Part shown: positions 2,912-50,503 of the stretch, piece by piece
Layout of the letters: each line of letters opens with the position of its first letter
Position numbering within the stretch: position 1 is the stretch's first letter
Source of the DNA: a virus
Length of the DNA stretch: 64,000 bases
UHGV virus genome: UHGV-0332176
Strand: one strand, 5' to 3'
Program-made: the position numbers and the translations under genes
Notes under the pieces: model-generated
Told to the model about the DNA's origin: nothing
Databases searched by the model: none
Seen by the model: only the letters and a program-made list of their open reading frames with translations

Positions 2912-4176
2912 TATATTTCCCCTTTTGCATAGATAAATTTAAAACTAATTAAATTTGTAAATTCAGTATCAAACAATATTTGACAAATTTCACCTTTTAA
3001 AACAGGTATAATTGTTCTTAAATATTTGTCTGCACTTCTTGATGCATAACAATAACCATAATTTAAACCACTTCTTATAATAGCTATATCAACCCAGTTT
3101 GGCCCTTGCCCATCTATACTGAAATAACCATTTGCTGGAGCAATATAAGTTGCTCCTGATGCACCTAAAGTTAATGAAACATATTTACTACCTGGCATAA
3201 CTTGTTGTGTAATAAATGTAGTATCATTTTTATCAAATAATTGATATGCATTATTAAAACTAAATGTAGTAATTTTTCCAGAAGCATCAGTTAAAAATGT
3301 TCCAATTGGACATACTACCCAATCATTTAACCATCCATTTGAAATATCATTTAAAACATATTTCCATTTATTTTCATTTGGAGAATACCAAATAGAATAT
3401 GTAGATAATGTTGGTGCATTATTTTGATAATAAACTTTTGATGTTTCTAAAAACTCTAATTGTCTTTCATCATCTGAAACTCTAGCAAATAATGTATATG
3501 ATGTATTTGGAGCTAAAGATATTGTCCAATAAGTTAAAGTAGGTAAAATTTTTACAATATTATTTTGACTTCCATCATCATTGTTACCATTTGGAAATAT
3601 ATAAGTATTTCCACCATTTTTAATTATTGTATTTCCAATAAAACCAAATCCGTTAAATACTTGGTCAATAGATGTCCAAGATGTTGTAGTAGATGTTCCA
3701 ATAGCAAATGGAAAAGAACATTCTTGCCAACCATCAATTGTATCCAAATAACATTTTTTATCAGTTGTATTAAAATAAATTTTAAATGTTGCAGTTGATT
3801 CGGGTAATTCAGATACAGTTTCACCTGTTAAAAATCCAATTAATAATACATCATAATCTTTAGAAAGTGCTAACATAACTTGACCATCATAATTTGCATT
3901 TTCACTTGTAATATCTGTTGTGGTAGTTTTCATAATACCATTACCATTATAAACTTTACTACCTGCTTTAAGTGTAATTGTACCATTATTTAATTCAAGT
4001 TTAATATCTTGAGGTATTTTTGTTAAACAGTTTGTAATTTGACCATAAGTCCAATATGGTTTAGAACCATTATTACTTAACATCATTCCTGATGTTTCAT
4101 CATTCATTAATGGCATTTGAACACCATTTAACATAATTTTTTGACTAAGTTCATTGTTACCTAAATATAATGTCAT
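2911..4176 (-). CDS. tail fibre / receptor-binding protein, paralog B
   Basis: Shares the ~180 aa core with 1243..2547; C-terminus ends ...YAKGEI like paralog A (...FAQGE). Confidence 0.6.
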   Translation of the reverse strand: MTLYLGNNELSQKIMLNGVQMPLMNDETSGMMLSNNGSKPYWTYGQITNCLTKIPQDIKLELNNGTITLKAGSKVYNGNGIMKTTTTDITSENANYDGQVMLALSKDYDVLLIGFLTGETVSELPESTATFKIYFNTTDKKCYLDTIDGWQECSFPFAIGTSTTTSWTSIDQVFNGFGFIGNTIIKNGGNTYIFPNGNNDDGSQNNIVKILPTLTYWTISLAPNTSYTLFARVSDDERQLEFLETSKVYYQNNAPTLSTYSIWYSPNENKWKYVLNDISNGWLNDWVVCPIGTFLTDASGKITTFSFNNAYQLFDKNDTTFITQQVMPGSKYVSLTLGASGATYIAPANGYFSIDGQGPNWVDIAIIRSGLNYGYCYASRSADKYLRTIIPVLKGEICQILFDTEFTNLISFKFIYAKGEI

Positions 4177-6034: not shown

Positions 6035-6559
6035 ATGAATGATATTAGTAAAATTAAGAGTAATAGAATTGATGATGGAATAAAACCTGGTGATTTATGT
6101 TATTCATTAAGAACAGAAAAAGAAGGATGGTTATTATGTGATGGAACAAGTTATTCAACAACTGATTATCCTGATTTATTTACTGTAATTGGTTATACAT
6201 TTGGTGGAAGTAATTCTCAATTTAATGTGCCTAATTGTTCTGGTAAATTTTTACAAATGGATACATCTAAAACCATAGGACAAAATATTGAAGCTGGTCT
6301 TCCAAATATTGATATGAGTGCATCATTTTATTTAATAGAAGCTCACGGTAGATTTATTGGCTTATCTAATAATACAGGTTCAGTATATGGTGAAGATGCA
6401 GGTGCAATAGAAAATGCTAATGGTGGTGGTGATGTTGGCAGTAATGCTCCAAGAAAAATTCATATAAATGGTAATTTAAATTCATATAATACAATTTATG
6501 GTAATTCAAACACAGTACAACCACCAGCTATAATTGTTAACTATTTTATCAAATATTAA
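6035..6559 (+). CDS. phage tail collar domain protein
   Basis: GWLLCDG...YPDLF..IG.TFGG...FNVPN..GKF matches the phage tail collar domain consensus; paralog of 13821..14336. Confidence 0.7.
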   Translation: MNDISKIKSNRIDDGIKPGDLCYSLRTEKEGWLLCDGTSYSTTDYPDLFTVIGYTFGGSNSQFNVPNCSGKFLQMDTSKTIGQNIEAGLPNIDMSASFYLIEAHGRFIGLSNNTGSVYGEDAGAIENANGGGDVGSNAPRKIHINGNLNSYNTIYGNSNTVQPPAIIVNYFIKY

Positions 6560-6563
6560 GTTT

Positions 6564-6586
6564 ATTTCTATTTATTAAATAGAAAT
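6564..6586. promoter_or_regulatory. palindromic element atttctatttattaaatagaaat upstream of 6599..7003
   Basis: Perfect 11-bp-arm inverted repeat; identical to the element upstream of 48320..48706. Confidence 0.45.
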
Positions 6587-6598
6587 AAAGGATAAAAT

Positions 6599-7003
6599 AT
6601 GACAGATACAAGTAAATTACCTATTTCACGTGTTGATGAATTAATTGATAAATTAGATGAAATTAATATTAAATTAACCAATTTAGAAAATTCTCGTAGA
6701 ATTATTGAAACCTGGTCAGAAGGAACTGAATGGTATCGTGTGTGGTCAGATGGTTGGATTGAACAAGGTGGAACAACTGGATTAATAACATCAAGTGATG
6801 GTTATACAGCAACAACAATTCAATTTAAAAAATCATTTATTAATACAAATTATACTTTTACATCTTGTGCAAATAAATATTCATCTCAAAATGGATTAGG
6901 AACTGCTTATCCACCATTTATTTTTACAAAAAATAATAATTCAGTTATAATTGGAAAATATTCTTGGACAGATGGTTTAGATTGGTATGCTTGTGGATAT
7001 TAA
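6599..7003 (+). CDS. small fibre-associated protein (paralog of 48320..48706)
   Basis: N-terminal 60 aa nearly identical to 48320..48706 (MTDTSKLPISRVDEL..KLDEIN..LTNLEN.R.IIETWSEGTEWYRVWSDGWIEQGG); ends W...CGY. Confidence 0.5.
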   Translation: MTDTSKLPISRVDELIDKLDEINIKLTNLENSRRIIETWSEGTEWYRVWSDGWIEQGGTTGLITSSDGYTATTIQFKKSFINTNYTFTSCANKYSSQNGLGTAYPPFIFTKNNNSVIIGKYSWTDGLDWYACGY

Positions 7004-13820: not shown

Positions 13821-14336
13821 ATGGCATTATATCTCGGAAGTAATGAAGTTTCTCAAAAAGTTTTATTATTAGGTGGAAATAAAAGTGATATAGAAGTTGG
13901 TGATTTATGTTATTCATTAAGAACAGAAAAAGAAGGATGGTTATTATGTGATGGAGCAAGTTATTCAACAACTGATTATCCTGACTTATTTGCTGTAATT
14001 GGTTATACTTTTGGTGGTTCAGAAAATAATTTTAACGTTCCAAATTATAAAGGTAAATTTCTTCAAATGATTAATGATAATCAAACAATAGGTCAAAATA
14101 TTGAAGCTGGTTTGCCTAATATTACAGGTAATTTTAGTGCATATAATAATGCTGGTATAGATACTGCTAATGGGTCATTTTATTTATCTAATGCACAACA
14201 TATAAACTATGCTGGTAGGTCAGAAAGAGATACATATCTTTGTAATTTTGATGTATCTCGTTCTTCTTCAATATATGGAAAATCAAATACAGTACAACCA
14301 CCTGCTTCTATTGTTAATTATTTTATCAAATATTAG
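13821..14336 (+). CDS. phage tail collar domain protein (paralog of 6035..6559)
   Basis: GDLCYSLRTEKEGWLLCDGASYSTTDYPDLFAVIGYTFGG nearly identical to 6035..6559; ends ...PPASIVNYFIKY. Confidence 0.7.
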   Translation: MALYLGSNEVSQKVLLLGGNKSDIEVGDLCYSLRTEKEGWLLCDGASYSTTDYPDLFAVIGYTFGGSENNFNVPNYKGKFLQMINDNQTIGQNIEAGLPNITGNFSAYNNAGIDTANGSFYLSNAQHINYAGRSERDTYLCNFDVSRSSSIYGKSNTVQPPASIVNYFIKY

Positions 14337-14452: not shown

Positions 14453-14519
14453 ATTTATGTATTATTTCAGTCGCAGTCATTTCTGTTGCAAGGATAACTG
14501 TTTCCCCACTAAACATAAA

Positions 14520-14660
14520 AGCATTCATCCGTTAGGATTAAGCAGCAATTACATTATAGTTATAGTTAACGTTTTCGTTAGCATTCATTTTATTTTGAAC
14601 CGATATTGGTGGTATCTCGCCAGGTACATTATAGCCATTTTCAATAATGTTCAAAATTCC
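14520..14660 (-). pseudogene. possible decayed DGR variable-repeat-like remnant (non-coding)
   Basis: On the minus strand ...aatgctaacgaaaacgttaactataactataatgtaattgctgcttaatcctaacgg; its 3' part matches the VR 3' end/IMH region of the DGR target (cttgctgctaatgctaaggg) at ~19/21 positions with one indel; Asn-codon rich; no intact ORF. Confidence 0.3.
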
Positions 14661-14864
14661 GTCCGCCCCTAATACATTGATTTTTCATAATATTTTCCTG
14701 GTGGAGCGGCTGGGAGTTAAACCCAGGTCACTATCATTTACTTTGGGATAATTTATCAGCACCATTCAAAATTATTTATAAATTATTTTATTTTAATTGT
14801 CAATAAAATAATTTAGGACATAAATACAGTTATAAGCAATTCACAAATTTAATAAAGGATTATA

Positions 14865-15668
14865 ATGATATATTATGTTTATCAAATAACAAATAAAATT
14901 AATAATAAAATTTACATTGGAAAAAGAAAATATAAAGGAGAAAATCCTTTATTAGATTCATATATGGGGTCAGGAAAATTAATTAAAGAAGCAATTAAAA
15001 AATATGGAAAAAATAATTTTCAAAAAAATATTATTCAAAGTTTTGATAATGAAAATGATGCTTTTAAATTAGAAAAAGAACTTGTAACAAAAGAATTCTG
15101 TAACAGAAAAGATACTTATAATATTCACGAAGGTGGTACAGGAAGTTTTTCTCACATTAATAATAAACCAATTGAAAAAAGAGAAAATATTATAGCTGTT
15201 AGAAAATTATTAAATTCAGGAGTAAAATTTGGTGGAAAAAAATATTTTACAGAAGAAACTTATCAAAAAATTAGTAATTTTAATAAAGAACGATGGAAAA
15301 CTTGGAAAGAAAAACCAGAATTAATGCCAGATTTTTATATAAAACCTCGTACAGAAAAATTTAAACAACATTTATCAGAAATTTTTAAAGGTCAAAATAA
15401 TCCTAATTTTGGTAAACATTGGTATATTCATAAAAAAGCTATTAATATTAATGAAAAGAAAATGTTTTTTGATAATGAAATACCACAAGGTTTTATTACA
15501 GTAAAAGAATGGAAAGATTTACATAAAAATAAGAAAAATAAAGCATATGGAAAACATTGGTATAATGATGGTAAACAAAATTATTTTTTATCCCCAGATG
15601 ATGAAAAAATTAAAATATTAAGTAAAGGGCGTATTGGTACTCTTTTTAAAAAAATTGAAAGTAATTAG
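14865..15668 (+). CDS. GIY-YIG homing endonuclease (Seg/I-TevI-like)
   Basis: N-terminal IYYVYQITN...KIYIGK (GIY...YIG motifs); C-terminal repeated NPNFGKHWY / AYGKHWYNDGK DNA-binding motifs typical of phage GIY-YIG endonucleases. Confidence 0.8.
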   Translation: MIYYVYQITNKINNKIYIGKRKYKGENPLLDSYMGSGKLIKEAIKKYGKNNFQKNIIQSFDNENDAFKLEKELVTKEFCNRKDTYNIHEGGTGSFSHINNKPIEKRENIIAVRKLLNSGVKFGGKKYFTEETYQKISNFNKERWKTWKEKPELMPDFYIKPRTEKFKQHLSEIFKGQNNPNFGKHWYIHKKAININEKKMFFDNEIPQGFITVKEWKDLHKNKKNKAYGKHWYNDGKQNYFLSPDDEKIKILSKGRIGTLFKKIESN

Positions 15669-15705
15669 AAAAAGATTTATATTAAATTTTAATGGTTCAA
15701 AGTTT

Positions 15706-15823
15706 ATTCGTTTTGCAAGCTGGTGGTAATTGGAATGATTCATCTAACTACGGAGTTGGTTCTCGTAATAGTAACAATTCTCGTGCTAATTTGAACGACA
15801 ATAACTCGGTGCGAGGGCTTGAT
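15706..15823 (+). repeat. DGR template repeat (TR)
   Basis: Ungapped match of ~115 nt to the reverse complement of 17400..17517; 19 differences, every one at a TR adenine (19 of 29 adenines, 0 of ~86 non-adenines); 11 AAY codons in the VR reading frame. Confidence 0.88.
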
Positions 15824-15948
15824 ATAATCTCTTTTTTGAGCATTAGCTGAATTTTGAACCTTGTCTTAATAGGCTAAACATCAAAATTGTAAAAATAATA
15901 TTAGTAAAAGAATTTGAAAATATTATTTTTCAATTAGAGTAAAAATAA

Positions 15949-17298
15949 ATGAAAAGAATTAATAATTTATGGGAAGAATTTACTTCACAAGAACATTGGT
16001 TTGAAGCAAGAAAAAGAGCTTTACGAGGTAAAGTTAAAAAATATTGTGTCAAAGCTATTATGAGAAAAGGTGACGAATATTTAGAAAAAATTCGTCAAGA
16101 TGTTATTAATGGTACTTTTGAATTTAAGGGTTATAAAGAACATACTATTTATGAACCTAAAGAACGTAAAATATTTGTAGCAAGAATTGAAGAAAGAATT
16201 TATCATTGGGCATCAATGATGATTACTGAAAGAATTTTTGAACCAACATTTATATTTGATAGCTATTGTTGCCGTAAAAATAAAGGACAACATAAATGTT
16301 CAGATAAATGCAAAGAAATTGTTAAACATAATAATTATTGTTTAAAATTAGATATTTCTAAATTTTATCCAAATATTAATCATAAAATATTAAAAGAGTG
16401 TTTAGCAAGAAAAATTAAAGATATAAGATTTCTCAATGCTTTATACGCAATTATTGATAGTCATAATAAGGATACTGGAAAAGGTATTCCAATTGGTAAT
16501 TATTCTTCTCAAATTTTTGGAAATATTTATATGACTAAATTAGATATGTTTGTTAAGCACACTTTAAAATGCAAACATTATTTAAGATATTGTGATGATT
16601 TTTGTTTATTTTCAAATGATAAAAAGTATTTAAATTGGTGCAAAGAAAAAATTATTGAATTTGTTACTAATGAATTAGATATGAAATTAAGCAAATGTGA
16701 TTTATTTAAAACTAAACAAGGTGTTGATTTTGTTGGATATAGACATTTTCCTCAATATACTTTAGTTAGAAAAAGAACTGCTAAAAAAGTTAAAAAGAGA
16801 ATGTTAAAAATTCAATATAAATTAAAAAATTATGAATTAACTCAAAAAGAATTATTTAGAATGAATGGGCAAGTTGCCAGCTCATATGGTTGGTGTAAAC
16901 ACGCTGATTCTTATAGATTTATGAAAAAATATAAAATTGAAGAATGTTTAAAGGAGATTATAATGAGATATGCAGAATTTAAAAACAAATTACATACAAA
17001 TAAAATGTTATCAATGAAAATTAATGATTTTATTAATAAAGAAATAACAATAACAGGTTGGGAATATTATAAAAAGAATGATAATAATGAAGATGATAAA
17101 AATAAAGAAGCAGTTAAAACTGTTAAAATACATTTAATATATAATGGTGAAGAAAAAATTATTATAACTAAAGCATCGGTTATTATCAGAGATTTAGAAG
17201 AAATTTCACAATTAGAAAAAGAAGAAAATACAAAGATATTTCCCTTTGATGCAACATTAAAGAAAGATACTAAACGAAATTATTTTTATTTTGAATAA
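15949..17298 (+). CDS. DGR-type reverse transcriptase
   Basis: RT motifs: TIYEPKERKIFVA (motif 1), LKLDISKFYPNI (motif A), GIPIGNYSSQIFGNIYM (DGR-specific IGxxxSQ in place of QGxxxSP), LRYCDDFCLF (YxDD), VDFVGYR; lies between TR and VR; extra ~110-aa C-terminal extension. Confidence 0.9.
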   Translation: MKRINNLWEEFTSQEHWFEARKRALRGKVKKYCVKAIMRKGDEYLEKIRQDVINGTFEFKGYKEHTIYEPKERKIFVARIEERIYHWASMMITERIFEPTFIFDSYCCRKNKGQHKCSDKCKEIVKHNNYCLKLDISKFYPNINHKILKECLARKIKDIRFLNALYAIIDSHNKDTGKGIPIGNYSSQIFGNIYMTKLDMFVKHTLKCKHYLRYCDDFCLFSNDKKYLNWCKEKIIEFVTNELDMKLSKCDLFKTKQGVDFVGYRHFPQYTLVRKRTAKKVKKRMLKIQYKLKNYELTQKELFRMNGQVASSYGWCKHADSYRFMKKYKIEECLKEIIMRYAEFKNKLHTNKMLSMKINDFINKEITITGWEYYKKNDNNEDDKNKEAVKTVKIHLIYNGEEKIIITKASVIIRDLEEISQLEKEENTKIFPFDATLKKDTKRNYFYFE

Positions 17299-17302
17299 AG
17301 AC

Positions 17303-17387
17303 GGGCATCGCAAGGCTGCCCTGTCGTTTGCTATATGACCGCACAAGGCGGTCTAAAAAGAAAAGGATTTGAGTTTTACTCAAATCC
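17303..17387. terminator. three consecutive GC-rich hairpins between the RT stop and the target gene stop (probable bidirectional terminator / DGR VR-proximal hairpins)
   Basis: gggcatcgcaaggctgccc; gaccgcacaaggcggtc; ggatttgag-ttttact-ctcaaatcc (target stop codon lies in the loop of the third hairpin); GC-rich relative to the AT-rich surroundings. Confidence 0.45.
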
Positions 17388-18455
17388 CTTAGCATTAGCA
17401 GCAAGCCCCCGCACCGAGCTACCGTCGCTCAAAGTAGCACGAGAAGCGTTACAATCACGAGAACCAACCCCGCAGATAGATGAACCATCCCAAGTACCAC
17501 CAGCCCGCAAAACGAAACCTTCACCGTAAAAAGAACCTTTACCCATATCAGTATTAATAACAGTCCAACCACTTCCACCAGATGCACCAGTTGAATTTAA
17601 ATATTGCCATAAAGCACCGCAACAATCTTCTATACCATAAACAGAAATCATTCTTCTACCAGCAGTATCTACGTGTCCACCAGTTGTTACTGGGTCAGCA
17701 GCACCAGAAATAGCAGTTCCTTGATTAGAACCAAATGCATATGCAGTAAATTCATTATCATTAGCTAAATGTTTACCAACTGAAAATAAATCTTCTACGT
17801 GATTTTGATAATAACGAGTATCAGTAATTGTTGCACCAAAAACTGATTTGGTATTTAATCCAGTTCCTGATTGTAAATAAATATCACACCATTTATCAAT
17901 TACATCAATATATGCCATTCCATCAACATCAGCAAATCGTGGACGAAATGAGATACAAGATATTGAATTTGGTAATATATCGCCAGCATTATATCCAGAT
18001 AATAAATGTCCAGAAATTGTTCCAACATTAGCACATACAGTATGGAATGAAGATAACCATTGAGTATTAGATGTTGTATATCCTGTTGGAGCATCTGAAT
18101 TTAATGAACAAATTAATTCTTTATCAGAAGTAATATAAATGTAATAAGTTTTTCCAGCTTGTAAAGATGTTCCAGTATCTAAAATAGAAACGGGATTAAT
18201 TTCTTTGGCTTCATAATTTTCATAATTAACTAATTCATTATTAAAAACTAAAGGTATATTACAAGGTTCAAGAATAATTGTTGTTTTATCAAAACAATTA
18301 GTTTTACCTTCTCTAAATAATTGAGTATAAGATTTACCTTTAATTGTATTATCTAATTCTTTAATATGAACAAAACGAAATGTAGGAGCAAATCCGCCTA
18401 ATAATGTTTGTAATCCATATATACGATTAATTTGAACTTTTGAAATATCTATCAT
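17376..18455 (-). CDS. DGR target (variable) protein with C-terminal C-type-lectin/FGE-like variable domain; probable receptor-binding protein
   Basis: Last 38 codons are the VR; C-terminus ...GEGFVLRAGGTWDGSSICGVGSRDCNASRATLSDGSSVRGL resembles the CLec-fold VR of Mtd-like DGR targets (GG.W..G...G); upstream region Gly/Thr-rich. Confidence 0.85.
   Translation of the reverse strand: MIDISKVQINRIYGLQTLLGGFAPTFRFVHIKELDNTIKGKSYTQLFREGKTNCFDKTTIILEPCNIPLVFNNELVNYENYEAKEINPVSILDTGTSLQAGKTYYIYITSDKELICSLNSDAPTGYTTSNTQWLSSFHTVCANVGTISGHLLSGYNAGDILPNSISCISFRPRFADVDGMAYIDVIDKWCDIYLQSGTGLNTKSVFGATITDTRYYQNHVEDLFSVGKHLANDNEFTAYAFGSNQGTAISGAADPVTTGGHVDTAGRRMISVYGIEDCCGALWQYLNSTGASGGSGWTVINTDMGKGSFYGEGFVLRAGGTWDGSSICGVGSRDCNASRATLSDGSSVRGLAANAKGFE
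17400..17517 (-). repeat. DGR variable repeat (VR) at the 3' end of the target gene
   Basis: See TR; relative to TR the codon changes are Q>R, N>T, N>D, D>G, N>I, Y>C, N>D, S>C, N>A, N>T, N>S, N>G, N>S, D>A plus 2 silent; homology ends abruptly 3' of gggcttg (IMH-like boundary). Confidence 0.88.
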
Positions 18456-19981: not shown

Positions 19982-20056
19982 ATTTTTATCTTTTAAAAAA
20001 ATAAAAACCTATCAAATTATTTTGATAGGTTTAATATATCAAATAAAATTTATTTG

Positions 20057-20704
20057 TCAAGAAATAAAATTAAATTTTTTCATTAATTTTTCAATATTAG
20101 ACATTTTATTTAGAAAATAATTTTCGTTATAAAAACTACTCCATTCCCAAGTAATATATTTTGTAACAACTCTTTTATGTGGTTTTATTTTACAAAATAA
20201 TTCACGACTGCCATCATTCCAAATAACACGACAATCATCATAAAATGTTCCCGAATTTGCATCAACAAAAAATGTATTGCCATCAAATTTTGTAATTTCA
20301 TATTGATAAATTTCTTCAGTTTCATAATGTAATTTAAATGTATTTAAAGAAACTTCTAACATTAGTTGAGTAAATAACCATTTAAAATTTTTAAATTTTT
20401 CTGATGGAGTTTCTCCTTTTAAAAACTTACGTTTAATAAGTTCTTTTGAATATAAACTATATTTAGATAAAAATTCTTCATATTTTTTAAAATTTTCATT
20501 GGACAAACAATTTAAATAAGGTTGAGCATCTTTTTTATACCAAGTAGAGAGAATATCTAATCCTGTTATACACATATCCATATCAGTATTGATAGATATT
20601 TCTGCTTTCCACTTTATATTTTTTAATTTTCTTTTATAATTTAATGCTCGCAATTTAGACATTAATATATTATCGGAATTATAAATTCTTTTAAAAATAT
20701 TCAT
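20057..20704 (-). CDS. hypothetical protein
   Basis: ORF track. Confidence 0.4.
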   Translation of the reverse strand: MNIFKRIYNSDNILMSKLRALNYKRKLKNIKWKAEISINTDMDMCITGLDILSTWYKKDAQPYLNCLSNENFKKYEEFLSKYSLYSKELIKRKFLKGETPSEKFKNFKWLFTQLMLEVSLNTFKLHYETEEIYQYEITKFDGNTFFVDANSGTFYDDCRVIWNDGSRELFCKIKPHKRVVTKYITWEWSSFYNENYFLNKMSNIEKLMKKFNFIS

Positions 20705-21830: not shown

Positions 21831-21906
21831 TGGCACTCCCAAGAGGATTCGAACCCCTAATTTAACGTCCGTAGCGTTATGGTTTTTCCAGTTAGCCTAT
21901 AGGAGC
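21831..21906 (-). tRNA. tRNA-Arg (anticodon ACG)
   Basis: Minus-strand cloverleaf: acceptor gctccta/tgggagt (two G-U pairs), anticodon stem taacg/cgtta with loop ctACGga, T-arm agggg-ttcgaat-cctct, encoded CCA; D-arm irregular. Confidence 0.6.
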
Positions 21907-22969: not shown

Positions 22970-23151
22970 TAATTTTGTTCCTTAAATTTACAAAATAGTG
23001 GATTAGTATCTCCACCGCCTACATAACAAACAACTTCTTCATTTTCACATCTAAGTATTGGAATATAAGTAAAATTACCTTCTCTCACTATTTCACAAGT
23101 CATTGTTAAACCAATTATTAAACAAAACAATTTTTTCATTTTATTCTCCAA
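22969..23151 (-). CDS. small putative lipoprotein
   Basis: Signal-peptide-like N-terminus MKKLFCLIIGLTMTC (lipobox-like Cys). Confidence 0.35.
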   Translation of the reverse strand: MENKMKKLFCLIIGLTMTCEIVREGNFTYIPILRCENEEVVCYVGGGDTNPLFCKFKEQN

Positions 23152-23203
23152 TAAATTATTTAAATAAAATATATCATAAAAAAATTATTTGTCAATAGAA
23201 AAA

Positions 23204-24151
23204 TTAAAATGGATATTTCCCTATTATTTTTTTGATTTCAATAATGCAAGATATAAAATTAATATCTGGAAAAGCTACAAAATTATGCTGATATAAATAT
23301 TTGGCAATTATAATTAAAATATCATCATATAATTTTTCTTCCGTTGTAATCATTGATAAATGATTATACATAAATTGATATAATGATTCATATTCTTCAT
23401 TAGCAATATTTTGAGCTAATAATTTTTTAAGTGTAAAGCAATCATTATTAATATTATTAATTACTTCACTAAATTTATCATATGCATATGCTGCATCATT
23501 TTTTAAAGGTTGTAAAATATTATTAATTGTATTTTGGTCAATTGCATTAATACAAGCTCTTAAATCAGGCTGATAAATTTCAACATATTTAACGACATCA
23601 TTCATATCATTAACAATAATACGTTCATCTTGTAAAATTTTTGCAATACGTCCAACAAATTCTTCAAATTTTAATGTATTAAAATGATAACGTTGACATC
23701 TTGATGTAATAGCAACATCAATTTGAGCAATATTATTTGTTGTAAAAATAAATCTACACCAATTAGAATATTCTTCTAATACATATTTTAATGATGATTG
23801 AGCTTGTTTAGAAGCTCTTTCAAATTCTTCTAAAATAATAAGTTTTACAGTATCTTTTTCTAATGGTGGAACAGATGCATAATCAATAACTTTACGCATA
23901 TCATCAATAGAAGTCTTATCAGACATATTATAACGAATATAATCAGTTAATTGTAATTCATTAATTAAAACATTAATCGATGAAGATTTTCCTGTTCCAG
24001 GAGGACCATAAAAAATTAAATGTGAATCAATAGTTTTATTAGCAATCCACGTTTTAAATTTATTTTCATATTCATCATTAATATATACTAAATCAGAAAC
24101 AGTTTTTGGTCTATATTTTTCAGTTAATATTTGGTTCATTTTCTTCCTCAT
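23204..24151 (-). CDS. sliding clamp loader ATPase subunit (T4 gp44 / RFC small subunit-like AAA+)
   Basis: EKYRPKTVSDLV...LIFYGPPGTGKSS Walker A in RFC-box context; DEAD-like ILEEFE; SRC-like TSRC. Confidence 0.75.
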   Translation of the reverse strand: MRKKMNQILTEKYRPKTVSDLVYINDEYENKFKTWIANKTIDSHLIFYGPPGTGKSSSINVLINELQLTDYIRYNMSDKTSIDDMRKVIDYASVPPLEKDTVKLIILEEFERASKQAQSSLKYVLEEYSNWCRFIFTTNNIAQIDVAITSRCQRYHFNTLKFEEFVGRIAKILQDERIIVNDMNDVVKYVEIYQPDLRACINAIDQNTINNILQPLKNDAAYAYDKFSEVINNINNDCFTLKKLLAQNIANEEYESLYQFMYNHLSMITTEEKLYDDILIIIAKYLYQHNFVAFPDINFISCIIEIKKIIGKYPF

Positions 24152-31437: not shown

Positions 31438-31524
31438 TGGTGGGCATACCGAGAGTCGAACTCGGATGAGGATACCCCCGACAGATTTTAAGTCTGTTGC
31501 GTCTACCAATTCCGCCATACGCCC
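31438..31524 (-). tRNA. tRNA-Leu (anticodon UAA), type II with long variable arm
   Basis: Acceptor gggcgta/tatgccc, D-arm gcggaattggtagacgc, anticodon stem acaga/tctgt with loop ctTAAaa, variable arm cgggggtatcctcatcc, T-arm ccgag-ttcgact-ctcgg, encoded CCA. Confidence 0.8.
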
Positions 31525-33826: not shown

Positions 33827-33913
33827 TGGAAGTCTGGACGAGATTCGAACTCGCATCATCTTTTCAGATATACGGTTTTGCAGACCGCTGTATAGCCATT
33901 CTACCACCAGACT
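33827..33913 (-). tRNA. tRNA with anticodon GCA (Cys-type) but atypically long 17-nt variable arm
   Basis: Acceptor agtctgg/ccagact perfect, anticodon stem gcggt/accgt with loop ctGCAaa, extra arm atatctgaaaagatgat, T-arm gcgag-ttcgaat-ctcgt, encoded CCA; identity uncertain. Confidence 0.55.
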
Positions 33914-33920
33914 TATAAAA

Positions 33921-33995
33921 TGGTACGGTAAGTGAGAATCGAACTCACATATTCAGCTTGGAAGGCTGACGTAATAGCCATTATACCATTACCGC
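33921..33995 (-). tRNA. tRNA-Gly (anticodon UCC)
   Basis: Acceptor gcggtaa/ttaccgt, anticodon stem tcagc/gctga with loop ctTCCaa, T-arm gtgag-ttcgatt-ctcac, encoded CCA. Confidence 0.75.
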
Positions 33996-34000
33996 ATTAA

Positions 34001-34075
34001 TGGAGCGACTTGCGAGAATCGAACTCACATCTAAACCTTGGCAAGGTCTTGTATTAACCATTATACGAAAGTCGC
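34001..34075 (-). tRNA. tRNA-Gly (anticodon GCC)
   Basis: Acceptor gcgactt/aagtcgc perfect, anticodon stem agacc/ggttt with loop ttGCCaa, T-arm gtgag-ttcgatt-ctcgc, encoded CCA. Confidence 0.75.
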
Positions 34076-34081
34076 AAATAT

Positions 34082-34155
34082 TGGCAGGAGCATAGGGATT
34101 TGAACCCCAACAGACAGTTTTGGAGACTGTAATGCTACCGTTACATCATACTCCT
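34082..34155 (-). tRNA. tRNA-Trp (anticodon CCA)
   Basis: Acceptor aggagta/tgctcct (one U-G pair), anticodon stem acagt/actgt with loop ctCCAaa, T-arm tgggg-ttcaaat-cccta, encoded CCA. Confidence 0.7.
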
Positions 34156-39160: not shown

Positions 39161-39283
39161 TGTTATAATCTTTCATTATTTGTTATTGATAAAGTTAATA
39201 TAACATAGAAGAATTATTTGTCAATAGAAAAAAATAAAAAATCCAAGAATTTTTCTTGGATTTTTATAAAATATATTAATTTT

Positions 39284-39595: not shown

Positions 39596-42500
39596 TTATT
39601 CAATAATAATATTATTTTTTCCACGTAAATAATCAATAGTTATCAAAATTGTTCCTGCTGTTGAAACTTGAATAACAGGTAAAGAACCTGCGTCATTTCC
39701 AACAGGAATAAATTTTGTAATTAACTGCATATTTTCATCTAACAATTCCAAATATAATGTATAATCTGAAAAATTATATTCTAATGTATAATCAGAATCA
39801 TCATCAATAATTTCAAAAGTTGTTGGGTCAACTTTCTGTAAATCTCTTTCAAAATTAAATACATATTCAAAACCTGTTTCAGGAATTACCATCCAATATG
39901 AAGGATTAAATAATTCGTGAGCATCATTTGAAGTATGTGCTTGTTTACATTGATAATATCTATCTTGATAAGCAACTTTATCATCAACTTGATATTGAGT
40001 TGCTGTTACCCAATTTTGATAATAACTTGAATTAATATCACGTTTAGTAACGTCTAATATATTTCTATTAAATAATAGGCGAGCTGAATCTTCATTATTA
40101 CTTGCTACAATAGAAATATATTTAATATCTTTTAAATCAACCGTTAAACCAGTATCTGAATCTTTACCTTGTTTATAAACATCTTCCCACATAGAAATTT
40201 TACCAGTACGTCCTGCATCTTCATCAAATGATGTTGATGAAGTATGTGCTTGACTACACATATAATAATATGTTGATGTTACTCCATCATATTCTTCATC
40301 GTGTTTTATAATATCACCAACTGCATAATATAAATTTGGTTCCCAAGTTAAAGTATTTTCATTAATTTTATTAACTATTGAATAAAATGGTCGTCTAATA
40401 TTAAATGATAATTGTTTTAAATTTACGAAATCTCCATAAATTCCTTTATCAAAAAAGATAATAGGGATTCTTGTTTTCATAATTGTTTGAATAGCTTGAT
40501 AATCAATACCAACACGATTTTCTGTTGATGCTAATTTATTAACATATTCAACGTTTGGAATAGCATCATTATCTGAAGCAATTCTTTCGGCATATGATAA
40601 ATTAGTGTGTGTAGAATCATCAATAACTAAATAATTATCACGAGTTGTTTGAAATGTGATTTTTTGACCACTTTCATAGCTACGAATAACATTACCATTT
40701 AAGTCCAGAGCTTTATTTAATAAAACAGATGGAGTATAATAATTTACTAATTGCCAATATTCAGCATTATTTGTGGTAATATCAGTTGATGAAGTGTGTT
40801 CTTTTAAACAAATATAAATATTATAACCAATTTCAAAAGGTATTTGAACATAATCATTAACATTATATGTTACACCAACTTCCCAAGTTGAATAAGATGC
40901 ATTATTTCCACCAAGTTCTAAATGTCCATAAAAACCAGAACCTAATTCAACATCTCCTGTTAAATTTGTACCACTTATTGTAACTTTATTATTATTAGAA
41001 GCATCTCCTTGTTCAATTGTAATACCATTAGTTAATGGACGAACAACTTCTTTTCCATCAATAATTTCAGTATTATATAATCCTTTAACTAAATCATCCC
41101 CATTTGGAGTAGCTAAATAATCTAAAAATACCCATTTTGGTTGATAAAAATCAAATTGATAGATTCTTTTGGAACTCATTTCAGGGTCTAATGTGTCAAT
41201 ATTATTTAATGTTGAATTATTTGTAAAACGAGTAGCAATTGTATTACTTTCTGTAACGTTTTTATCAAATAAAGAATTAATAAATGTTAAATATTCAGTT
41301 CTTTCGCTTAAAGTAATAATAGATTTTCCTAATGAACAATTACTAAATCTATTTCCAATAAATGAACCATTTGAAGTTTTATTATTTTCATTATAAGAAG
41401 TTATATTAATTGCTTGATTTGTAATATCTTTAAATAAGCAATTATTAAATAAAAACCAACTTAAATTATTTGAAATATTTACACCATTTCTAGCATTTTC
41501 AAAAATGCAATTAAAGAAATGTACATAAGAAGAATCTTGTAAACCTTGTGATTTAAAAATATTAACTAATGTTGAACCATTACCATTTTGTATATCAGAA
41601 TAACCAATGAATTTAACATTTCTAAACCAAACATCATATGTTGAACCTAACAATAAAACAGTTTCTAATGTACTTTCAGACACATCAAAAGTCATATCTT
41701 CAACAATAATATTGTGTGCAATTTCTCCATTAACACCATATTTGTTTGTTGATGATAAATCACTTAAAACATAATTACTATCTAATGTTGTTAATAAAAC
41801 ATTCAAACCATTTTCATAACTATTTGTTTTAATAATAGTTCTATCAATTCCTTCACCTTTTAAATGAATACCAGTTGGTAATGCTAATGGTTTAGAATTA
41901 ATAATATATTCACCAGCAGGAACTAACATTGTTTTGAAGCAATCAGGTTTATTATCTGCACAATAAACAGTTAATATAGCATTATAAAAAGCATCTGAAT
42001 CATCAGTTGTTCCATCGCCCAATACACCAAAATTTTTAACTGAACAATAATCATCTAAAACTTCTTGAATTGTTCTATCAGAAGGTGGTGTAGCATTTTC
42101 TGTATAACTTGGTTCAGTTGTAATACCAATAATATCAAGAATTCCACCTTGTTCTTGACCTTCACCATTTTCTAAAACAAGTGTTTCTCCATTGCTAATA
42201 ATTTGAATTTTTCCACCTTCAACAACTTGTGCTTTAACACCTAAATTTAAAGAATTTATTTTATCACAAAATCCTTGAGCATCTGTTTCTTTATCAAATG
42301 TAATTGTTTGACCATTTATAACAATTGTTGTTCCAGCTGGAATAGATGGATACAATTTGGAACCTGTTACAATTATAGGTAATTTACTACCATTACCATT
42401 TGAATAAACATATTTAATCATATCCAAATTATCACTAAATTCAGTTAAAACCTGAATATTACCATATGGAAATGTATTAGATTGAATTCTTTCTTTTAAT

Positions 42501-42640
42501 TTTGGATTATTTGGATTACCAATAAACAAACTATTAGTATCAGTTGCTAAACCAAATTCACCTTCGTGTAAATCTGTTAATTCACTTTGATTACCACGTC
42601 TATGTTGTATTAATGCAATTTGTTTTGTATTTTTTGCCAT
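39596..42640 (-). CDS. tailspike / tail fibre with pectate-lyase-like beta-helix (depolymerase-type) domain and three C-terminal CBM5/12-like modules
   Basis: SVKNFGVLGDGTTDDSDAFYNAI (classic N-terminal motif of right-handed beta-helix tailspikes/polysaccharide lyases); the three W....Y..GD.V.......Y.C...HTS modules are detailed in the CBM5/12 finding. Confidence 0.7.
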   Translation of the reverse strand: MAKNTKQIALIQHRRGNQSELTDLHEGEFGLATDTNSLFIGNPNNPKLKERIQSNTFPYGNIQVLTEFSDNLDMIKYVYSNGNGSKLPIIVTGSKLYPSIPAGTTIVINGQTITFDKETDAQGFCDKINSLNLGVKAQVVEGGKIQIISNGETLVLENGEGQEQGGILDIIGITTEPSYTENATPPSDRTIQEVLDDYCSVKNFGVLGDGTTDDSDAFYNAILTVYCADNKPDCFKTMLVPAGEYIINSKPLALPTGIHLKGEGIDRTIIKTNSYENGLNVLLTTLDSNYVLSDLSSTNKYGVNGEIAHNIIVEDMTFDVSESTLETVLLLGSTYDVWFRNVKFIGYSDIQNGNGSTLVNIFKSQGLQDSSYVHFFNCIFENARNGVNISNNLSWFLFNNCLFKDITNQAINITSYNENNKTSNGSFIGNRFSNCSLGKSIITLSERTEYLTFINSLFDKNVTESNTIATRFTNNSTLNNIDTLDPEMSSKRIYQFDFYQPKWVFLDYLATPNGDDLVKGLYNTEIIDGKEVVRPLTNGITIEQGDASNNNKVTISGTNLTGDVELGSGFYGHLELGGNNASYSTWEVGVTYNVNDYVQIPFEIGYNIYICLKEHTSSTDITTNNAEYWQLVNYYTPSVLLNKALDLNGNVIRSYESGQKITFQTTRDNYLVIDDSTHTNLSYAERIASDNDAIPNVEYVNKLASTENRVGIDYQAIQTIMKTRIPIIFFDKGIYGDFVNLKQLSFNIRRPFYSIVNKINENTLTWEPNLYYAVGDIIKHDEEYDGVTSTYYYMCSQAHTSSTSFDEDAGRTGKISMWEDVYKQGKDSDTGLTVDLKDIKYISIVASNNEDSARLLFNRNILDVTKRDINSSYYQNWVTATQYQVDDKVAYQDRYYQCKQAHTSNDAHELFNPSYWMVIPETGFEYVFNFERDLQKVDPTTFEIIDDDSDYTLEYNFSDYTLYLELLDENMQLITKFIPVGNDAGSLPVIQVSTAGTILITIDYLRGKNNIIIE

Positions 42641-42742
42641 CTTAAATAAACCTTTAACATCATATATGATTATTTATTTAATAAATGTTTGAATAAACCT
42701 ATTGATTGCATTAGAAAAATTAAATCATTATTCTCTTTTTAT

Positions 42743-48323: not shown

Positions 48324-48706
48324 TAACCACATACATACCACATACAAGTATTTTGTCCATTGTTTCTCATACAACAAACTACAGAATTAGTTGTAAATTG
48401 TTGAAATGTATAACCATTAACATATGGGTCTTGACCAGTATGTCCAATTTCTGATTGGGTTATTGTATAATTAATTGTTGTATAAGGTTTTTTAAAATTA
48501 ATAGTTATATTTACATCATTACCAGTAACTCGTCCACCTTGCTCAATCCACCCATCTGACCACACACGATACCATTCAGTTCCTTCTGACCAGGTTTCAA
48601 TTATATATCTTCTATTTTCTAAATTAGTTAATCTTGTATTAATTTCATCTAATTTATTTAATAATTCATCAACACGTGAAATAGGTAATTTACTTGTATC
48701 TGTCAT
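48320..48706 (-). CDS. small fibre-associated protein (paralog of 6599..7003)
   Basis: Identical N-terminal 60 aa to 6599..7003; ends ...CMWYVCGY. Confidence 0.5.
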   Translation of the reverse strand: MTDTSKLPISRVDELLNKLDEINTRLTNLENRRYIIETWSEGTEWYRVWSDGWIEQGGRVTGNDVNITINFKKPYTTINYTITQSEIGHTGQDPYVNGYTFQQFTTNSVVCCMRNNGQNTCMWYVCGY

Positions 48707-48718
48707 ATTTTATCCTTT

Positions 48719-48741
48719 ATTTCTATTTAATAAATAGAAAT
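48719..48741. promoter_or_regulatory. palindromic element atttctatttaataaatagaaat upstream of 48320..48706
   Basis: Same inverted repeat as at 6564..6586 (reverse complement). Confidence 0.45.
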
Positions 48742-48744
48742 AAA

Positions 48745-48780
48745 CAATTAAAAACCGCCTTTAATAGGCGGTTTTTATAA
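48745..48780 (-). terminator. rho-independent terminator after groEL (aaaccgcctattaaaggcggttttt on minus strand)
   Basis: GC stem plus T-run. Confidence 0.55.
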
Positions 48781-48793
48781 ATAATTAAGTATT

Positions 48794-50431
48794 TTACATA
48801 TTAGGTGTATTTTGTCTTATTGCTGACATTAACTTTAAATTAGTTTCAGTATCATCAATAATTAATCCTTCAACCGTTAATAATGAACCTGCAATTGAAG
48901 ACCCATTTTCCAAAGCACAACGAACAACTTTGGTTGCATCTAAAATACCTGCATCAACTAAATTACAGAATTTATCGCATTTAGCATCATATCCCCAAGA
49001 ATAATCATCATTATCTAATACTTTTTCAACAATGACTTCACCAGATTTTCCAGCATTTTCTGCAATTTTTTTCATTGGAGCACTTAAAGATTTTAATACA
49101 ATTTCATATCCAACATTTTCATCATCTGTTATAACAATATTATTTAATTCCTTAATAAGGTCTTTTTGTGCTCTTACTAATGATACTCCACCACCAGGTA
49201 AAATACCTTCTTCTAATGCTGCTCTCGTTGCACAAACGGCATCATCAACACGGTCTTTCTTTTCTTTAACTTCTGTTTCAGTTGCTCCACCAACTTTAAT
49301 AACAGCAACACCGCCAATTAATTTAGCAAGTCTTTCACGAAGTTTTTCTTTATCATATGATGAATCAGTATTTTCAATTTCTTCAGAAATTTGTTTTGCT
49401 CTTTCATCAATAGCTTCTTTACTTCCGTGTCCACCAATAATAATTGTTTCAGTTGGTGTAATTCTAATTTTATCGCAAGAACCCAAATCATCAATAGTTA
49501 CTTTTTCTAATTGAGCACCAAATTGAGTTGAAATAAAATTACCACCTGTTAAAATTGCAATATCTTCCATTTGAAATCTACGAATATCACCAAATGAAGG
49601 AGCTTTAACAGCACAAACTTTTAATCCTGCTTTAATTCTATTAATAACCAATGCTGATAATGGGTCATCTGCCATTTCATCGGCAATCATAATTAATGGA
49701 CGACCAATTTCCATAACATTTTCTAACAAAGGAATAATAGATTGAAGATTGTTAATTTTACCATCATATAAGAAAATATATGGATTATCATACTCAACTA
49801 ATTGTCTTTCTGGATTAGTCATAAAATATGGTGAAAGATAACCTTGGTCAAATTGTAAACCATCAACAATTTCTAATTCTGTCTTTAATCCCTTTGCTTC
49901 TTCAACAGTAACTACACCTTTTTCACCAACAACTTCAATTGCTTTAGCAATAAAATCACCAATTTCTGTATCACCATTTGCAGAAATAGTTGCCAATTGA
50001 CGAATTTCTTCATTTGTTGTTACTTTTTTTGAATGTGATTTTAATGATTCAACTACAACCTTAACTGCATTTGAAATACCTTTTTGAATTTCAGTAGATT
50101 TACGACCTTTAGAAATTGACTTTAAACCTTCTTCAGCAATTGTAGATGCAATTATACAAGTTGCTGTTGTACCATCACCTGCATCTCTACCAGTTTTTTC
50201 AGATGCTTGAATAATCATTTTTGCACCTTCACCTTCAGAGTCCATTAGTGTAACAGATTTTGCAACAGTTACACCATCTTTTGTAACTTTTGGTGAACCC
50301 CAAGATTGTTGAATAGCAATTGTTCTACCAGCAGGACCAGCAGTAGCAGAAACAACATCTGCAACTGTTTTCATACCAGAATATAACGTACTACGAGCTT
50401 CATCACCTTTAATTACTTTTTTAATTGTCAT
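48794..50431 (-). CDS. groEL: chaperonin GroEL (Cpn60)
   Basis: 545 aa; AALEEGILPGGGVSL equatorial-domain signature, DDAVCATRAALEEG, GDGTTTA; collinear with GroEL throughout. Confidence 0.9.
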   Translation of the reverse strand: MTIKKVIKGDEARSTLYSGMKTVADVVSATAGPAGRTIAIQQSWGSPKVTKDGVTVAKSVTLMDSEGEGAKMIIQASEKTGRDAGDGTTATCIIASTIAEEGLKSISKGRKSTEIQKGISNAVKVVVESLKSHSKKVTTNEEIRQLATISANGDTEIGDFIAKAIEVVGEKGVVTVEEAKGLKTELEIVDGLQFDQGYLSPYFMTNPERQLVEYDNPYIFLYDGKINNLQSIIPLLENVMEIGRPLIMIADEMADDPLSALVINRIKAGLKVCAVKAPSFGDIRRFQMEDIAILTGGNFISTQFGAQLEKVTIDDLGSCDKIRITPTETIIIGGHGSKEAIDERAKQISEEIENTDSSYDKEKLRERLAKLIGGVAVIKVGGATETEVKEKKDRVDDAVCATRAALEEGILPGGGVSLVRAQKDLIKELNNIVITDDENVGYEIVLKSLSAPMKKIAENAGKSGEVIVEKVLDNDDYSWGYDAKCDKFCNLVDAGILDATKVVRCALENGSSIAGSLLTVEGLIIDDTETNLKLMSAIRQNTPNM

Positions 50432-50503
50432 AATTATTTTTTCTCCTTAACTTAAATTTATTTTTAATAATAACAAAAATTTTATAATTTTACAAAAATA
50501 ATT

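Follow-up and report, generated by a model that had tools for sequence, protein, structure and literature searches.

A probably active diversity-generating retroelement with a convergent target gene in a human-gut jumbo phage, and a candidate accessory domain fused to its reverse transcriptase

Diversity-generating retroelements (DGRs) are common in gut phages. In the ribonucleoprotein of the prototype, the mtd-avd-TR-brt cassette of Bordetella phage BPP-1, nucleotide A56 of the spacer (Sp) RNA primes, G57-C58 come next, and Sp59-70 pairs upstream of the template repeat (TR) (bioRxiv 10.1101/2023.10.23.563531). Lineage 3 of the family is without avd, and architecture A accounts for 29% of DGRs (Wu et al. 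2018, PMC5758913); the reverse transcriptase (RT) of crAssphage LMMB has been published as an avd-less member of lineage 3 (PMC7290462). C-terminal extensions, as long as 150 aa and of unexplained function, occur in about 20% of DGR RTs (Wu et al. 2018, PMC5758913). RNA motifs of the RT-n series have been proposed to act in DGRs, their function being left open by the authors (Weinberg et al. 2017, PMC5737381). Here we describe the element at positions 15,706 to 18,455 of a 64,000-nt stretch of the virus genome UHGV-0332176 (hereafter the window), which comprises a TR, an RT gene and a variable repeat (VR) in an oppositely oriented tail-protein gene. We are highly confident that it is a genuine and evidently active DGR of a ~287-kb, 25% GC human-gut jumbo phage. 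Systems of this kind are already known; the possibly undescribed part is an accessory domain fused to the RT.

The plus-strand segment 15706-15823 and the reverse complement of 17400-17517 align without gaps over 118 nt, as the first-pass annotation of this DNA had claimed, and its second claim, that mismatches fall solely at TR adenines, also holds in the pairwise alignment. All 20 mismatches are at adenines of the TR (20/31 A vs 0/87 non-A; Fisher exact p = 4e-15). A repeat finder calls the same pair as 15707-15821 and 17402-17516 (115 nt, 84% complementary), and this core has 18 mismatches, again with none outside adenines (18/29 A vs 0/86 non-A). The adenine specificity noted earlier stands, with the count of 19 mismatches at 29 adenines corrected to 18, the number that its own capitalised string displays; the 11 AAY codons reported are in fact 10. 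The adenines are concentrated in codon positions 1 and 2 (26/31). From the 28 variable adenines of the mutagenised tract (15717-15804), 4^28 = 7e16 DNA variants or 7e14 peptide variants are possible, and by computation a stop codon is unreachable.

Three positions differ between the TR and every VR examined, namely 15706 (A>T), 15814 (A>G) and 15822 (A>C). These differences mark the borders of homology and the difference between the initiation-of-mutagenic-homing site of the VR (IMH) and its TR counterpart (IMH*), not mutagenesis. The 17 nt that follow the last variable adenine (15804) are GC-rich and, apart from the fixed A/G at 15814, common to both repeats, as in an IMH/IMH* pair, and the flanks beyond these segments diverge (GATATAATC next to the TR, GCTGCTAATGC next to the VR). 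An AAY-rich TR and a GC-rich IMH-like end are shared with BPP-1. When the TR, entire and in 40-nt pieces, was scanned with A treated as N, no second VR or remote target was found in the whole window.

The TR and VR are inverted repeats 1.6 kb apart, and other tail-fibre segments are duplicated in the window. Such an arrangement could be read as an inversion switch, or as the product of gene conversion between paralogous tail-fibre ends, with no part for retrohoming; gene conversion could also produce the VR-like sequence found at the TR of a relative, L010. Recombination of either type cannot give mismatches confined to one base on one strand (p 4e-15), nor can it give ten VRs beside one TR as described below. 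No invertase or recombinase was found at the locus, the inverted configuration was not seen in 16 contigs, and the 52-aa open reading frame (ORF) that spans the TR does not amount to a gene fragment in a context of its own. We consider this explanation extremely unlikely.

Natural variants of the same element provide the evidence for activity. The exact RT protein is present in more than 100 blocks of the searched assembly index, on contigs of up to 288 kb, and the studies that hold it are human-gut studies, going by study codes and record names. We compared 16 loci encoding the identical RT protein (within L003-L020), which carry ten distinct VRs on ten contigs; the VR of the window is identical to that of a 284-kb contig (ENA ERZ27311596 k119_54750). 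All ten VRs differ, and each of the 31 TR adenine positions varies in at least one of them. Tabulated by position, the VRs depart from the TR in 190/310 A-cells vs 12/870 non-A cells. Mean pairwise divergence per 100 nt amounts to 15.6 in the VR and is more than 100-fold lower, 0.14, over the other 938 nt of the target gene; the RT gene (0.23) and the intergenic hairpins (0) are similarly conserved among the ten contigs. The TR is identical in 13/16 loci, and the remaining three (L007/L019 and L015) carry T76C at TR position 76, with the C mirrored at the same VR position in exactly those loci. In L009, which encodes an RT that is 90% identical, three non-A substitutions and one deletion in the TR are all mirrored in the VR. 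Hypervariation in nature is restricted to the VR, non-A changes are copied from TR to VR, and the A-specific transfer that had been recognized in the window as the signature of mutagenic retrohoming recurs across the ten natural variants.

Some observations weigh against present activity. The VR differences are all between samples and not read-level differences within one population, so all the evidence for activity is of the between-sample kind and does not give the rate or timing of homing. The 12/870 non-A differences are explained in part by TR variants; ordinary mutation or RT error has to account for the others. The RT is an in-frame fusion of an unusual kind, and the loss of 16/30 adenines from the TR of L010 indicates that decay occurs in the lineage. 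One may therefore envisage a fossil DGR that diversified its target in the past, in which either the RT, whose C-terminus is an odd read-through, or the RNA is now inactive and the VR differences are old recombined alleles. To produce 15.6% divergence in the VR beside flanking genes at 0.14-0.23%, recombination among old alleles would have to be implausibly precise, with tracts ending at the borders of TR homology. The catalytic motifs are all intact in the RT protein that recurs identically in the >100 index blocks, the fused form of the RT is conserved at 56-65% identity in relatives (P0002-P0004), and the TR retains 28 mutable adenines and 10 AAY codons. We judge a fossil element to be improbable, and retain the reading of a functional DGR. 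The element is then one more well-documented DGR, very probably an active tropism-switching cassette of an uncultured ~287-kb phage that occurs in many human gut cohorts, and its at least 10 natural VR alleles on an isogenic background are usable for studying receptor adaptation.

The RT gene (ORF 15949-17298) encodes 449 aa with a Pfam RVT_1 domain. Both motifs of the first-pass annotation, IGxxxSQ (GIPIGNYSSQ) and YCDD, are present, and PIGN..SQ, which reads PIGNYSSQ here, is invariant across a 29-sequence alignment of relatives. In a PDB sequence search the best solved relative is the Bordetella phage RT, bRT (8ub7; E 1.9e-36), and other solved RTs score weaker (group II intron ~1e-14, retron ~1e-5). 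The search scores thus bear out a DGR-type RT rather than a grouping with group II intron or retron RTs, and sequence comparison supports bRT as the closest solved relative. Membership of another RT class (retron, group II intron, or a defence RT such as Drt/Abi), with the proximity of the repeats a coincidence, has some footing in NCBIfam matches to group II, retron, Drt3a and Drt2 models, all sub-threshold, and in several database records that label homologues 'retron-type'. The NCBIfam scores are far under their cut-offs (e.g. 111 vs 300), bRT is the best solved homologue by 20 orders of magnitude, IGxxxSQ is invariant in the family, and Rfam scans returned neither intron RNA domains nor msr/msd. 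Moreover, relatives are found nearly always beside A-biased TR/VR pairs and Mtd-like targets, the pairs being present in 62/80 viral relatives. We give a non-DGR assignment next to no credence. Among 3919 homologues, mostly of ~340 aa, the DGR-type RT of the window stands out as ~110 residues longer than most; it is 34-37% identical to RTs of crAss-like phages.

The target is a homologue of Mtd, judged by sequence and by predicted fold. It matches Pfam mtd_2nd (the second domain of Mtd), the PHROG tail family phrog_11262 and, by sequence, Mtd in the PDB (E 7e-17). Its AF2 model (predicted local distance difference test, pLDDT, 89; predicted template-modelling score, pTM, 0.88) retrieves Mtd with Foldseek (E 1e-22, TM 0.68, ~335 columns superposed), followed by the Thermus DGR variable protein TaqVP and formylglycine-generating enzymes (FGE), which belong to the C-type-lectin-fold (CLec) group. 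The CLec variable domain proposed earlier for the C-terminus of the target is in keeping with both the Mtd match and the model. The VR had been placed in the last 38 codons; it does lie at the 3′ end of the gene, with the difference that it covers residues 314-351 of 359, leaving eight further codons (AANAKGFE) before the stop. The locus resembles BPP-1 in having a bRT-homologous RT and an Mtd-homologous target with the VR at the 3′ end of the CLec domain.

The target is surrounded by a tail-fibre module whose products include Collar, CBM_5_12, F5/8-type-C and Gly-rich proteins. Another Mtd-related tail protein, 1025 aa long, is encoded at 39599-42673 (-); it combines Mtd_N with a pectate-lyase-like domain and CBM_5_12, and has neither a VR nor a match to the TR. 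The window also holds long near-identical repeats (6560-6772 vs 48533-48745; 6080-6207 vs 13890-14017; 1909-2208 vs 3622-3921), one of which is an inverted pair (132 + 72 nt, 95-96% identical, 42 kb apart), and direct duplications among the tail-collar and tail-fibre genes. The repeats suggest DGR-independent recombination and module exchange in the fibre cluster.

One difference from the described systems is the layout. The cassette is convergent (TR-RT> <VR-target): unlike in BPP-1, the target gene follows the RT and is read from the other strand. In all 62 other viral relatives for which a pair could be detected, the order is VR-TR-RT on one strand. The convergent layout is found again in L110 (RT 56% identical), where 18/18 mismatches are at TR adenines. 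It is a feature of the clade, with L110 as the nearest convergent relative outside this phage lineage. INPHARED holds no close annotated phage relatives, its DNA matches being solely to Seg-like homing endonucleases. With the Avd-less gut-phage DGRs of lineage 3/architecture A (PMC5758913; crAssphage LMMB, PMC7290462; the hankyphage-like Bacteroides phage BX-TP1) the element shares a TR-RT core and a CLec tail-fibre target; these have target-VR-TR-RT on one strand, in contrast to the convergent target in the window and L110, and the examples also differ from the window in that the latter derives from a ~287-kb jumbo phage. Another difference from BPP-1 is the host, a low-GC gut organism.

The 127 nt that separate the end of the TR from the RT start have the spacer layout common to relatives. 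In this layout, the GC-rich TR end leads into a conserved GAUA and ~7 nt that pair with ~7 nt before a conserved R-GCUG; the segment after GCUG pairs upstream of the TR, and a small hairpin, an A-rich stretch and a long hairpin with internal UAGUA...GAA follow. Pairing of the template and primer strands is specific to this register, with 237/315 cells paired in 45 relatives vs 85-155 for shifts of -4 to +4. Nearest the 3′ end of the helix, four pairs are formed in 39-44/45 sequences, with compensatory pair types that include CAGG:CCUG, CGUG:CACG, UAAU:AUUA and UUGC:GCAA, among others. The duplex that flanks the TR recurs in 46 relatives with unrelated sequences. Its median folding free energy is -19.5 kcal/mol for self pairs vs -11.1 kcal/mol for non-self pairs, and in 37 loci the cognate combination is among the three best of 46; in support of this Stop helix, an upstream segment thus pairs much more strongly with the spacer of its own locus than with the spacers of other loci. 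Covariation among the relatives thus argues for both RNA helices.

By analogy, the spacer helices would be the template:primer duplex and the 'cPRT Stop' duplex of BPP-1, in an arrangement that should work like its cis-priming element. The likeness includes a template:primer hairpin, a predicted priming A followed by G-C, the Stop duplex, and a small hairpin followed by adenosines; the U6 loop and the 127-nt length of the Sp are unlike BPP-1. From these counterparts, the cDNA is predicted to run from ~15824 to 15707, in agreement with the observed borders of homology. The precise priming nucleotide and both ends of the cDNA are assigned by analogy with BPP-1.

Rfam RT-14 (RF02921) aligns end-to-end to 15778-15930 (36.6 bits, E 0.0012), so that the full model is matched, including the small hairpin and the UAGUA...GAA hairpin. 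Spacers of other DGRs likewise match Rfam families (BPP-1 Phage_DGR, RF03022; BX-TP1 RT-3; L097 RT-17). Two results count against the RNA assignments. The score does not reach the RT-14 gathering score of 48.1 bits, and the very AT-rich version in the window is RT-14-like, not a member by the Rfam criterion. In addition, the spacer being AT-rich, the helices of the window are not significant by shuffling alone (z = -1.9; 14 of 300 shuffles). Because single-sequence shuffling is not significant, the support for the helices in the window is comparative and comes from homology of position with the relatives. Such comparative evidence suggests that the cis-priming RNA architecture of BPP-1 has been retained in Avd-less DGRs.

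A further difference from BPP-1 is that the element has neither avd nor the Avd-binding stem-loop. BPP-1 Avd gave only chance matches in the six-frame ORFs of the window (tblastn, phmmer; best E about 2), and Pfam detected no Avd family (PF05635) in the RT-adjacent ORFs or 11 neighbouring small ORFs. In the relatives L021 and L023, there is no ORF in the avd slot between VR and TR. The Avd-binding stem-loop at the start of the spacer (Sp5-32 in BPP-1) was not found in the window, where only the U6 loop is present; template/primer loops in relatives range from 2 to 46 nt. An Avd could be encoded beyond the 64 kb, which would speak against an Avd-less system. We place the element in the Avd-less, 'lineage 3'-like branch of DGRs, on the basis of 34.5% identity to the LMMB RT and the shared lack of avd, and not of an RT tree.

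Also unlike bRT, the RT continues into a C-terminal domain resembling an oligonucleotide/oligosaccharide-binding (OB) fold. The domain starts at a methionine (ATG 16963) after an internal Shine-Dalgarno sequence, AAGGAG, at 16951-16956; a free form of the domain may therefore also be made. In other DGRs, its homologues include separate ORFs of 95-105 aa, which overlap the RT gene at its end. A word-indexed homologue search with the 111-aa domain alone gave just near-identical sequences, and a profile search was required, which collected 915 cluster representatives. The domain is present in 69/80 related viral DGR loci, usually just after the RT; about eight loci have it in the avd slot, between VR and TR. 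It is fused to the RT also in L028, L075, L078, L091 and BX-TP1, the RT of the last carrying the same domain at E 3.6e-11. This distribution shows, at the level of gene neighbourhoods, that the domain is linked to DGRs. The AF2 model (pLDDT 83.7) is a small beta-barrel with weak similarity to OB-fold and single-stranded DNA-binding (SSB) proteins, and the domain is mildly basic (pI 8.0-9.7 in eight fused examples; mean 8.0 in 45 stand-alone ORFs of related loci). It has no match in Pfam and no sequence match in the PDB, and we found no description of it in the open-access literature. The domain was also compared with Avd itself, an identity that was rejected (hhalign probability 0.1%).

The domain may bind the RNA or the cDNA. 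We tentatively propose, as a reading slightly less likely than not, that this ~100-residue OB-like domain is an undescribed DGR accessory factor that replaces Avd, for instance by keeping the template:primer RNA or the growing cDNA in place. The proposal draws on gene linkage and the predicted fold, and the Avd-less RNA architecture, with a priming hairpin and a Stop duplex but no Avd stem-loop, would be the matching RNA partner. How mutagenic retrohoming proceeds in 'Avd-independent' systems has been an open question since Wu et al. 2018, and the domain offers a candidate protein partner for it; an RT-fused or RT-adjacent OB-like domain could also matter for the engineering of compact DGR-based mutagenesis tools.

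We propose the following mechanism. A transcript of 15694-15948 or more, probably together with the RT mRNA, would fold such that the sequences flanking the TR pair as the 13-bp Stop duplex and the first spacer nucleotides pair with 15838-15845. The RT would then prime in cis from A15845 and copy from ~A15824, faithfully except at adenines, until it halts at the Stop duplex. The cDNA would replace the VR at the 3′ end of the convergent Mtd-like tail-fibre gene, with the GC-rich IMH-like segment as the 3′ limit and probably with assistance from the downstream hairpins. Up to 4^28 DNA variants of the ligand-binding face could be generated in this way, the presumed benefit being that the phage follows changes in host receptors.

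In BPP-1, a GC-rich inverted repeat boosts homing (PMC3240598; PMC5758913). The window likewise has hairpins past the VR; unlike in BPP-1, the first is AT-rich and terminator-like, and the GC-rich ones are 50-100 nt further. The GC-rich hairpins are invariant among the 10 contigs. L009 has an identical copy of the hairpin 17337-17353 (GACCGC-CTTGT-GCGGTC on the target strand), which is not kept in L022, and the GGGC...CTTG-YG...GCCC core of the 17300-17325 hairpin is the sole part kept in the window, L009 and L022. In L022 this GGGC...GCCC core sits after the VR-type end although the RT is on the same strand. The GC-rich hairpins fit as candidate counterparts of the homing-enhancing inverted repeat of BPP-1, a role assigned by analogy; alternatively, they may be purely terminators. 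The features of the locus are listed in the table.

Table. Coordinates of the DGR features in the window; RNA elements and hairpins are predictions.
Feature	Position	Strand	Remarks
Upstream strand of predicted Stop duplex, GGUUCAAAGUUUA	15694-15706	+	Abuts the 5′ edge of the TR; pairs with 15848-15860 (RNA fold and duplexfold)
TR, 115-nt core	15707-15821	+	Mutagenic A at 15717-15804 (28 variable, 10 AAY); GC-rich IMH*-like end CTCGGTGCGAGGGCTTG at 15805-15821
Conserved GAUA start site	15821-15824	+	First templated nucleotide predicted to be A15824
Sp RNA	15822-15948	+	127 nt between TR and RT
Template strand	15825-15831	+	Pairs with primer strand
U6 loop	15832-15837	+	Separates template and primer strands
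Primer strand	15838-15845	+	Ends at predicted priming A15845, then G15846 C15847
Spacer strand of Stop duplex	15848-15860	+	13-bp duplex with 15694-15706
Small hairpin	15861-15877	+	A-rich stretch next
Long hairpin	15889-15930	+	Internal UUAGUA...GAA
RT proper	15949-16953	+	Residues 1 to ~335; GIPIGNYSSQ, YCDD; Pfam RVT_1; PDB bRT 8ub7; phrog_1423
C-terminal accessory domain	16963-17298	+	Fused in frame to RT; residues 339-449, stop included
Two GC-rich hairpins	17300-17353 (17300-17325, 17337-17353)	-	3′ of target gene, in a 25% GC genome; DNA fold z = -5.4
Intrinsic-terminator-like hairpin	17362-17390	-	13-bp stem-loop and T-run; starts 12 nt past VR; includes target stop codon; terminator scan
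VR	17402-17516	-	Target residues 314-351; diversified part 17419-17506; IMH-like end CTCGGTGCGGGGGCTTG at 17402-17418
Target gene	17376-18455	-	359-aa Mtd-like tail (receptor-binding) protein; C-type-lectin-fold C-terminal domain

Three relatives depart from the common pattern. In L010 (32-146; the same locus as L028; IMGVR_UViG_3300045988_152776) the repeat has TR-type flanks, which are those of L009 on both sides, yet 16/30 adenines are lost relative to the L009 TR, every one of these 16 differences falling on an A. In this lineage IMH* and IMH, both GC-rich, do not differ from each other, and the true TR and VR of L009 share exact runs of ≤18 nt (read by eye, not computed). The L010 TR looks as if mutagenic homing or VR-to-TR conversion had overwritten it. 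The contig starts 31 nt before the TR, and an assembly artefact behind the A-depleted repeat is unlikely. L022 (1-140; Logan ERR14023439_31555), which has a fused RT that is 65% identical, begins with a VR-type end and AT-rich and GC-rich hairpins, and the RT follows immediately on the same strand. Neither a TR nor a spacer separates this VR-type end from the RT, and the contig is cut; L022 would represent a third arrangement of the same components. Finally, L016 (2728-3804; ENA ERZ28620598 scaffold_10) has a VR allele with a clean 3-nt (one-codon) deletion opposite TR AAT-AGT-AAC, and encodes a 358-aa target.

Directly upstream of the TR lies a gene for a GIY-YIG / NUMOD3 (Seg-like) homing endonuclease (14865-15668, +). 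In the 90%-related L009, 14624-15664 is replaced by an unrelated 253 nt, and the endonuclease region is thus a lineage-specific insertion beside the DGR. Between this gene and a tail-collar gene, ~900 nt upstream of the TR, is a permuted (two-piece, alpha-type) transfer-messenger RNA (tmRNA) gene (14469-14807, -), which is matched by Rfam alpha_tmRNA (77 bits) and tmRNA_permuted (87.5 bits), both above gathering, and is not called by ARAGORN. Permuted tmRNAs are typical of alphaproteobacteria and some cyanobacteria, and the type may hint at the host.

Elsewhere in the window there are six tRNA genes (Arg-ACG, Leu-UAA, Cys, Gly-UCC, Gly-GCC and Trp, at 21831-21906, 31438-31524 and 33827-34155, -) and a gene for a GroEL-like chaperonin (48797-50446, -); tRNA genes and a chaperonin are typical equipment of jumbo phages. 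An intergenic motif (...TATATCA...AATTATTTGTCAAKARAAA...) recurs upstream of minus-strand gene blocks, at 20012-20075, 23147-23210 and 39176-39239, and may be a phage promoter or regulatory site.

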